From the NCBI GenBank assembly GCA_016214025.1, contig JACRPH010000003.1, forward strand, positions 1,814-65,813: DNA of 64,000 bases, written 5' to 3'. Below are positions 47,290 through 62,100 of the stretch, piece after piece. The stretch comes from Candidatus Woesearchaeota archaeon (GTDB taxonomy: Archaea; Nanobdellota; Nanobdellia; Woesearchaeales; GW2011-AR9). Each line of letters starts with the position of its first letter. The stretch's first letter is position 1. The position numbers and the translations under genes were made by a program. The notes beneath the pieces were generated by a model, which did no database searches, was not told where the DNA came from, and saw only the letters and a program-made list of their open reading frames with translations.

Positions 47290-47499
47290 AGTATTTAACT
47301 CCATTTATTTTTCTGGTTCTTGTCTCAGCAACAGCTTTACAAAAGCGGTGCTGGACTACACGCCCTGTTGCTACGATCGAGGCGACTCGATTATAAAACC
47401 TTCAGGTTGAACACGTTCCAGCTTGATAAATTACAATGGCGACAGAAATGAAGCCATGGTGCGCTAAGGAAGAGAGCACTTCCACGGCAATGGGGCTAC

Positions 47500-47594
47500 A
47501 TTGTTGGGCGGGGCGCTTGGCTTAACGACATGAGCAACAACTCCAACTTCAACGGAGATGCTCGTAATCTTAACAATCACAACGCTTTCCTCGG
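47500..47594 (+). repeat. 95-bp segment, copy 2 (upstream of the YdjM-like gene)
   Basis: Same length as copy 1, about 13 substitutions. Every difference I could align is a change to A in this copy. Confidence 0.85.
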
Positions 47595-61858: not shown

Positions 61859-61868
61859 TTTTATAAAA
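61859..61868 (+). promoter_or_regulatory. TATA box 25 nt upstream of the tRNA 5' end
   Basis: 'gttttataaaatagg'. Confidence 0.5.
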
Positions 61869-61892
61869 TAGGCTCTGAATGTAATTCTTGAT

Positions 61893-62087
61893 GCGGATGT
61901 GCCGGAGTGGTCAAACGTAGTAAGCTTGGCTTATGCGGACTTGACGGGATAGCTCATTTTGGTTCTATCCGAATGAATCCAAACTCAAGGCATGGGAAGA
62001 AAGAGTGCTCATCAGAGTGCTATGAATAATCCCTGTAAGTCATCTATTGGCTTAGTGCCTACCCAGGTTCGATCCCTGGCATCCGCA
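61893..62087 (+). tRNA. tRNA gene (class II-like) interrupted by ~100 nt of intervening sequence; isotype unresolved (Ser-UGA-like 'gcggacttga' is a candidate anticodon arm)
   Basis: Acceptor 'gcggatg' pairs with 'catccgc' plus discriminator a. D-loop 'agtggtcaaa'. T-arm 'ccagg ttcgatc cctgg'. Variable-arm hairpin 'ggc ttagt gcc'. Total 195 nt; followed by a T-tract. Confidence 0.6.
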
Positions 62088-62100
62088 TTTATTTTTTAAC

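Follow-up and report, generated by a model that had tools for sequence, protein, structure and literature searches.

A putative three-intron tRNA-Leu(CAA) gene of a Woesearchaeota archaeon and a conserved kink-turn module in its canonical intron

What kind of gene has both ends of a tRNA and, between them, a long sequence that does not fold as one canonical intron? The question is raised by positions 61893-62087 on the forward strand of the window, by which we mean the whole 64,000-nucleotide (nt) stretch of contig JACRPH010000003.1 (assembly GCA_016214025.1) that was analysed, from a Candidatus Woesearchaeota archaeon. An initial annotation, made from the letters alone, had recognized the tRNA ends, put the intervening sequence at about 100 nt, and left a choice between a multi-intron tRNA, with Ser(UGA) as the candidate identity, and a tRNA disrupted by a small insertion. 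On the sequence evidence presented below, the locus is in all likelihood a functional class II tRNA-Leu(CAA) gene with three protein-spliced introns in a groundwater archaeon of the Woesearchaeota (DPANN). The part that goes beyond the published cases we found is a kink-turn module in the canonical intron, which is conserved in relatives and for which a role in guiding methylation can be considered.

The ends are those of a tRNA, as first described. A 7-base-pair (bp) acceptor stem (GCGGATG/CATCCGC) is completed by A73, the D-loop reads AGTGGTCAAA, the T-arm is CCAGG-TTCGATC-CCTGG, and a variable arm with a GGC/GCC hairpin stands ahead of it, all within a gene of 195 nt. A TATA-box promoter element, TTTATAAAAT (61860-61869, +), read directly from the sequence, ends 24 nt before the gene, and the same element lies 5' of the orthologues in the sequences extracted for them. 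CCA is not encoded at the 3' end of the gene, which is followed by a directly readable T-rich tract, TTTATTTTTT (62088-62097, +), the likely transcription stop. The extra sequence between the ends is real and totals 111 nt rather than about 100, divided among three introns of 29, 30 and 52 nt. Exon 1 (61893-61914, +), delimited by alignment to an intron-less orthologue and by the ARAGORN cloverleaf, holds the 5' strand of the acceptor stem, U8-G9, the 5' strand of the D-stem and most of the D-loop. Intron 1 (61915-61943, +) interrupts the D-loop at about Sprinzl position 21/22 in our own numbering and was placed by a gap in the orthologues and a fit to the bulge-helix-bulge (BHB) splice motif; the initial annotation had seen about 10 or about 19 additional nucleotides in the D-loop, of which the larger figure comes nearer to the actual 29. 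Exon 2 (61944-61952, +; alignment and ARAGORN) supplies the end of the D-loop, the 3' strand of the D-stem, nt 26 and nt 27-30 of the anticodon stem. Intron 2 (61953-61982, +) lies at position 30/31 within the anticodon stem, as indicated by the orthologue gap, a BHB and the frequent use of this site in relatives. Only 7 nt, namely nt 31-37, make up exon 3 (61983-61989, +), with the anticodon CAA at 61986-61988, an assignment resting on the invariant word ACTCAA and the ARAGORN call Leu(caa). Intron 3 (61990-62041, +), supported by conservation in the family and by a BHB, occupies the canonical position 37/38, and exon 4 (62042-62087, +; alignment and ARAGORN) provides nt 38, the 3' strand of the anticodon stem, the long variable arm, the T-arm, the 3' strand of the acceptor stem and A73. 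The roughly 70 nt that had been left unexplained are thus intron 2, the 7-nt anticodon exon and intron 3.

When all three introns were deleted by coordinate with a script, the remaining 84 nt were called tRNA-Leu(caa) by ARAGORN, with stems of 7 bp (acceptor), 3 bp (D), 5 bp (anticodon, with one extra G+U drawn) and 5 bp (T) and a variable arm. Leucine tRNAs are recognized by a class II variable arm, by the rules of the anticodon loop and by A73. The product has a 7-nt loop CUCAAGA with U33 and a purine at 37, a long variable arm and A73. With only the canonical intron retained, the intron mode of ARAGORN still returned Leu(caa) with a 52-nt intron, while retention of either non-canonical intron gave no call or a wrong one. 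Finders miss the gene because the retained non-canonical introns abolish or corrupt the call.

The exon boundaries are set independently by comparison with relatives. We searched the locus against 40 related genomes plus the window's own genome and found matches in 41/41; the matches fell into two blocks, the first 25 nt of the gene and its last 110-160 nt, at a distance that varies between genomes. One orthologue (L020) is an uninterrupted class II tRNA-Leu(CAA) of 84 nt with a 3-bp D-stem, the loop CUCAAAA, a 15-nt variable arm and A73. Alignment of eight orthologues with 0, 1, 2 or 3 introns opened three gaps, which correspond to positions 23-51, about 61-90 and 98-149 of the window's gene. 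A degenerate 28-nt pattern spanning the junction of intron 3 and exon 4 found 107 stretches in a collection of species-representative genomes; most of the titles shown were Woesearchaeota, Nanoarchaeota or Nanoarchaeia, with about 20 'uncultured Methanosarcinales' and a few 'archaeon'. Parsing yielded 99 distinct complete Leu(CAA) genes, with five loci discarded because a landmark or the 3' terminus could not be located. One intron is present in 40 of the genes, two introns in 45 and three in 14, in a sample that requires intron 3 by construction and from which the frequency of the intron-less form is not inferable. The 99 genes have their introns at five sites that are used repeatedly (early D-loop, 21/22, 30/31, 37/38 and T-arm), and the three-site combination of the window's gene recurs in three others (L055, L114 and L125). 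The multi-intron tRNA gene structure is of a known kind and common in this lineage.

The archaeal BHB consists of a 4-bp central helix, each strand of which runs into a 3-nt bulge that holds the cut. We examined this geometry at the junctions fixed beforehand by the orthologue alignment, and it was present at all three, with 4/4, 4/4 and 3/4 central pairs for introns 1, 2 and 3, two 3-nt bulges each, and inner helices of 4 bp, 6 bp and 2+3 bp. By sequence, the boundary of intron 1 is ambiguous over 3 nt (an ACG repeat), so that the junction could lie at any of four places; a complete GGUC/GACU helix together with the 4-bp inner helix forms only at 22/52 (gene coordinates), and the other three places give 1-2 pairs. 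The central helix of intron 2 is GGAU/AUCC, and both helices of this intron are recovered in an unconstrained minimum free energy fold of the 195-nt precursor. At intron 3, nt 32-35 face UAAG with C34 opposite A, and the motif is flanked by the anticodon stem and by the inner helix CA/UG + GGG(A)/(U)CCC. The view that the intervening sequence is not a single canonical intron, and that the gene is a multi-intron tRNA, is thus borne out by the orthologue gaps, by the BHB at each junction and by the spliced product.

The genome encodes a single splicing endonuclease of the alpha type (246 amino acids, contig C62; Pfam domains tRNA_int_endo_N and tRNA_int_endo) and an RtcB ligase (573.6 bits). Transcription would start about 24 nt 3' of the TATA box and end in the T-tract; the 195-nt precursor would form a relaxed BHB at each intron, with the geometry found at the three junctions; the one alpha-type endonuclease would then cut the six bulges, RtcB would join the four exons, and the resulting 84-nt tRNA would receive its CCA. 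Three points weigh against this scheme. The outer helix of the BHB is absent in intron 1 and reduced to 1 bp in intron 2, for which reason both motifs have to be regarded as relaxed forms. The alpha4-type endonuclease has classically been thought strict, although DPANN enzymes are described as having an extra loop (PMC5829648). Finally, the three splice folds share nucleotides, the central helix of intron 2 using nt 25-28 of the D-stem and anticodon stem, and therefore an order of splicing would be required.

A tRNA-Leu gene that was disrupted in the past by three small insertions, either random or like miniature inverted-repeat transposable elements (MITEs), and now gives no tRNA would fit the failure of standard finders at this gene, the lack of a proper BHB outer helix in introns 1 and 2, and an 8-nt direct repeat, TTGGCTTA, shared by intron 1 and the variable arm. 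We regard such a pseudogene as improbable. After splicing all exon stems are intact, and the promoter and T-tract are retained. At junctions set independently by alignment, every insert shows the 4-bp helix with its two flanking 3-nt bulges, genes throughout the order use these three sites too, and no further copies of the inserts were found elsewhere in the genome, all of which speaks against disruption by a small insertion. A search of the genome, which is 97% complete, with the gene returned only the gene itself and a Leu(CAG) on contig C35, so that a second Leu(CAA) gene that could supply the same isoacceptor was not found within a tRNA catalogue that is incomplete. The repeat lies at 61926-61933 and 62047-62054 and is probably due to chance, since by our estimate an 8-mer repeat is expected about 0.3 times within 195 nt. 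Its interpretation as a MITE or a target-site duplication was rejected on the same ground, and also because deleting one copy with the intervening DNA destroys the anticodon arm.

Two other identities were suggested for the locus, and each has hardly any chance of being correct. The initial annotation had compared GCGGA-CTTGA to the anticodon arm of a tRNA-Ser(UGA), which would then have several non-canonical introns. The words GCGGA (61935), CTTGA (61940) and TCCGA (61968) are indeed present, and the class II variable arm is as in serine tRNAs. However, the GCGGACTTGA stretch is missing from same-genus and intron-less orthologues; it constitutes the 3' end of intron 1, where it forms strands of the inner and central BHB helices. 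By our own reading, a 7-nt loop with a purine at position 37 cannot be built from this arm, and the invariant ACTCAA(G) loop with the anticodon CAA lies elsewhere, in agreement with the Leu call on the spliced form; the orthologue alignment refutes Ser(UGA). The intron mode of ARAGORN, applied to the unspliced gene, returned a tRNA-Ala(ggc) of 80 nt with a single 117-nt intron. A G3:U70 pair marks alanine tRNAs, and the acceptor stem here has G3:C70. The D-stem has only 2 pairs in the ARAGORN drawing, and the anticodon arm is a false one that the program can build through the chance repeat TTGGCTTA, out of intron-1 sequence absent from the orthologues. Comparison with the orthologues thus refutes Ala(GGC) as well, and Leu(CAA) is the identity used in what follows.

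Masking by introns appears to extend to other tRNA genes of this archaeon. In default mode ARAGORN found 0 tRNA genes in the 64,000-nt window, and Rfam had no match at the locus either at the gathering threshold or at E ≤ 10. In the whole genome (85 contigs), ARAGORN in default mode reported 14 tRNAs, all intron-free, and the Rfam tRNA model gave 22 matches at E ≤ 1, of which 19 were above the cut-off. Most tRNA genes of the genome are probably masked by introns. A survey that included one Woesearchaeota genome reported more tRNA disruption and incomplete predicted tRNA sets in DPANN archaea (PMC5829648).

Intron 3 stands out for its conservation. Its sequence is 72-90% identical among the family hits that span it. 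From 121 loci we obtained 102 distinct intron-3 sequences, 95 of which can be read as a D-like box NNGA followed by a hairpin with 4 bp or more, a bulge of 3 nt and GA; 96 were aligned, six being excluded as shorter than 44 or longer than 63 nt or as not re-located. In the window's gene the module (62001-62025, +) comprises a D-like box AAGA, a 6-bp stem GUGCUC/GAGUGC closed by the loop AUCA, the 3-nt bulge UAU and a GA that belongs to a C'-like UAUGA. The direct repeats listed by the initial annotation are present, AGAGTGCT at 62002 and 62014 and ATGAAT at 61973 and 62022; the former pair constitutes the two strands of the kink-turn stem, which can pair with each other by way of G.U wobbles. 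All six stem pairs (6/6) show compensatory changes in the alignment, with 92.4% of the cells paired, compared with 24-42% when the partners are slid by 1-3 columns. Both GA dinucleotides are kept in 92/96 sequences, and the bulge follows N-A-U, with A at its second position in 94/96 and U at its third in 96/96; the adjoining exon word ACTCAA is likewise invariant (96/96). Such a combination of canonical stem, 3-nt bulge and tandem G.A pairs is the signature of a kink-turn (PMC1874613; PMC7994747). By covariation and conserved motif, then, the hairpin of intron 3 is a kink-turn, and it probably binds L7Ae, which is encoded in the genome together with Nop5 and fibrillarin. A second L7Ae-family match (44.5 bits), with one in-frame TAA, was seen at C5:23985-24239(-) of the same genome (L135).

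The module is not confined to tRNA-Leu(CAA). The bare kink-turn pattern is uninformative outside tRNA genes, because its 119 hits in the genome lie within the range for block-shuffled genomes (104-131). Among 16 long tRNA-like genes of the genome, however, it occurs in 5, against 0.68 expected from the shuffles. One of the five, a Trp-like gene, is doubtful, with the pattern overlapping presumed exon sequence; introns with the module are found in tRNA-Met(CAU) at C63:12657-12786(-), tRNA-Cys(GCA) at C5:41152-41262(-) and a His-like gene at C5:33679-33859(-) (L137-L139). No Rfam family matched the module in the search of the locus at E ≤ 10, and at E ≤ 1 the loci of 7 relatives gave tRNA, a spurious tmRNA match and no C/D family. 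In the literature on kink-turn modules of tRNA introns we found only the case of the tRNA-Trp intron.

Could the intron guide the modification of its own tRNA? Immediately 5' of the D-like box, most relatives have 7 nt (consensus UUUGAGU plus one nt) that are antisense to tRNA nt 31-37, and the best register places N5 opposite C34 in 76/95 parsed Leu introns. This register with at least 6 contiguous pairs occurs in 56/95 introns and in 182 of 19,000 trials with shuffled guides, a comparison that shows conservation rather than providing an independent test, as the Leu introns are related sequences. On the alignment the guide-target helix of Leu intron 3 is 89.5% paired. The D-like box of the relatives is mostly NUGA (ATGA 35, TTGA 23 and CTGA 11 of 95), and the C-like box mostly GAUGA. 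The same kink-turn module is found in the canonical intron, 53 nt long, of the tRNA-Met(CAU) gene on contig C63 of the window's genome. Among 26 distinct orthologous introns of this tRNA-Met(CAU) family, all 26 have the kink-turn, and in 25 an uninterrupted run of 5 or more pairs begins at nt 31 and sets N5 opposite C34. At N2 the two sets of introns differ as their targets do, with C opposite G31 in Met and U opposite A31 in 86/96 Leu introns. According to PMC7994747, C/D guides follow an N+5 rule, Pyrococcus has C/D sRNAs directed at position 34 of tRNA-Leu(CAA), Leu(UAA), Met and Trp, and the Pyrococcus tRNA-Trp intron itself is a C/D guide; the sR47 ribonucleoprotein of Pyrococcus abyssi methylates C34 of tRNA-Leu(CAA) in vitro (PMC5558902). 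We tentatively propose that the canonical introns of Woesearchaeales tRNA-Leu(CAA) and tRNA-Met(CAU), perhaps of further tRNAs too, are circularly permuted C/D modules with one kink-turn that methylate their own C34, the window's copy being a decayed guide that retains only the L7Ae site. The 5' part of the intron would pair with nt 31-37 of its own tRNA and recruit L7Ae, Nop5 and fibrillarin to the wobble C34. The guide fold excludes the BHB fold, and therefore modification would have to precede splicing.

Several observations run counter to this proposal. Only a single kink-turn per intron was found in the parses, and a second box pair was not seen in the exons or in the other introns; two motifs (C/D and C'/D') about 12 nt apart, as in archaeal C/D sRNAs, were thus not found. 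Natural archaeal C/D RNAs have two motifs, and complexes with a single motif showed weak activity or a lack of specificity in vitro (PMC1635284). The antisense follows the N+5 register, but it extends over 5-7 bp, compared with 10-12 as a rule. Because the exon does not vary, within-family covariation of the guide-target helix is not possible. The tRNA-Cys and His-like introns with a kink-turn show, by our own reading, no convincing antisense to position 34. Finally, a search of 5 genomes in which the Leu(CAA) gene lacks a kink-turn intron revealed no stand-alone guide: a canonical C-box with antisense and box gave 0 hits, and a looser pattern gave 3, none with a hairpin, against 2 in a reversed control.

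Alternatively, the kink-turn could be unrelated to methylation in any lineage and serve as an L7Ae-binding clamp that helps long introns to fold for the endonuclease or stabilises the excised circular intron, the antisense being a by-product of intron history. This is a serious candidate, which nonetheless falls short of being probable. It would account for a kink-turn that is kept in the window's genome and its subclade despite the decay of the antisense, for the kink-turns of the tRNA-Cys and His-like introns, which have no obvious antisense to position 34, and for there being one kink-turn per intron. In addition, the Leu and Met anticodon loops share CUCA, and the two introns could be paralogues. 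On the other hand, the antisense is conserved where it is unpaired within the intron, for example in short forms of 45-50 nt. The spacing between antisense and box is fixed, with N5 facing C34 in the Leu and Met introns at the frequencies given above, and N2 differs between them so as to match nt 31. Moreover, C/D guides of Pyrococcus are known to act on position 34 of these very tRNAs (PMC7994747, PMC5558902).

For the window's own copy a guide function is unlikely. It pairs with the anticodon loop at only 3/7 antisense positions, and in place of the antisense there is a strand that finds its partner within the intron (GGGA/UCCC), forming a helix that, by our own reading of the sequences, covaries within a small subclade sharing the window's form. 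Its boxes UAUGAAU and AAGA are degenerate compared with C (RUGAUGA) and D (CUGA), with the GA pairs retained. Local intron 3 is thus probably a canonical intron with a predicted L7Ae-binding kink-turn whose guide part has decayed and which would keep only an L7Ae-binding or structural role. Two alternative targets of the decayed guide, nt 39-43 (5 bp including two G.U) and C32 at N5 (a 4-bp match found by hand), were too weak to be claimed.

Each component of the locus can be compared with systems described previously. The multi-intron tRNA genes of Thermoproteales (Sugahara et al. 2007/2008, PMC4033280) likewise have several short introns at canonical and non-canonical sites, including the D-loop and anticodon stem, with a BHB or relaxed BHB per intron and a protein endonuclease; according to that review, such genes have at most three introns. 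They differ in belonging to Crenarchaeota with an (alpha-beta)2 enzyme, whereas the present genome is from a DPANN archaeon with one alpha-type endonuclease gene; DPANN endonucleases are described as alpha4 with an extra loop (PMC5829648). A close parallel to the proposed module is the pre-tRNA-Trp intron of Pyrococcus (sR50) and Haloferax volcanii, which as a C/D RNA guides the formation of Cm34 and Um39 (Clouet d'Orval 2001 and Singh 2004, cited in PMC7994747). Like the Woesearchaeota module, it is a 37/38 intron with kink-turn boxes and an antisense that sets its own C34 at N+5; unlike it, the Trp intron is complete, with all four boxes (C, D', C' and D) and a pair of guides that are 10-12 nt long (PMC7994747). 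The Woesearchaeota module has a single kink-turn in the order D'-hairpin-C', an antisense of 5-7 bp and the hosts Leu(CAA) and Met(CAU), and the copy in the window has lost most of the antisense.

The P. abyssi guide sR47 (Nolivos 2005, cited in PMC5558902) addresses the same target nucleotide of the same tRNA species. It is, however, a separate gene with two motifs (a K-turn and a K-loop), whereas the candidate guide described here lies within the target's own intron. L7Ae-binding kink-turns of C/D and H/ACA sRNAs, rRNA and RNase P RNA (PMC1874613, PMC7994747) share with the module the stem, the 3-nt bulge, the tandem G.A/A.G pairs and the U of the bulge next to GA; the present ones differ in lying inside tRNA introns, between the splice motif and the terminal hairpin, and in having no match to an Rfam family. 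That one kink-turn with one antisense can make a working guide is shown by the minimal single-domain C/D snoRNA of Drosophila (Deryusheva and Gall 2019, cited in PMC7994747), which differs in being eukaryotic and linear, with a 14-nt antisense between C and D (PMC7994747); in the Woesearchaeota introns the stem is closed by a loop and the other side is open, a permuted topology.

Related loci show further arrangements. In two public contigs of Woesearchaeota/Nanoarchaeota (L063 and L095), more than 200 nt of AT-rich sequence resembling an open reading frame (ORF) precede the 3' part of a tRNA-Leu(CAA), from the end of intron 3 onward, in place of the 5' exons; the arrangement could reflect a very long intron, the insertion of a cassette or a gene that is split. 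Intron 3 of L081 has 107 nt, with about 55 extra nt 3' of the kink-turn, which may be an insertion within the intron. The D-loop intron of a tRNA-Leu(UAG) (L023; genome G014, contig C32) has its last 12 nt identical to those of intron 1 of the window; this gene also has a T-loop intron, and its canonical intron contains the box-like words AUGAUGA and CUGA. Like introns across Leu isoacceptors suggest, from sequence resemblance, a spread of introns between paralogous genes. Elsewhere in the window, positions 47324-47504 (+) match the Rfam RT-16 RNA (RF03019) with 51 bits against a cut-off of 50, in a GC-rich gap of 240 nt between an unknown ORF of 314 amino acids and a YdjM-like ORF. No reverse transcriptase adjoins the match, which could be another structured RNA under the wrong name.

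Default finders miss genes of this type in a 97%-complete genome, and the 'missing tRNAs' of DPANN archaea (PMC5829648) would therefore be, at least in part, hidden multi-intron genes rather than signs of gene loss or host dependence. About 100 orthologues with 1-3 introns, and one (L020) with none, provide a clean series for the study of tRNA-intron gain and loss under a single alpha-type endonuclease. If the guide proposal is correct, the introns of the relatives would contain the smallest natural archaeal methylation guide, and one box motif with 5-7 bp of antisense would suffice in cis. Removal of the intron would then be coupled to tRNA modification throughout the lineage, and the persistence of the intron would be tied to a function, wobble methylation, which bears on why tRNA introns are kept.

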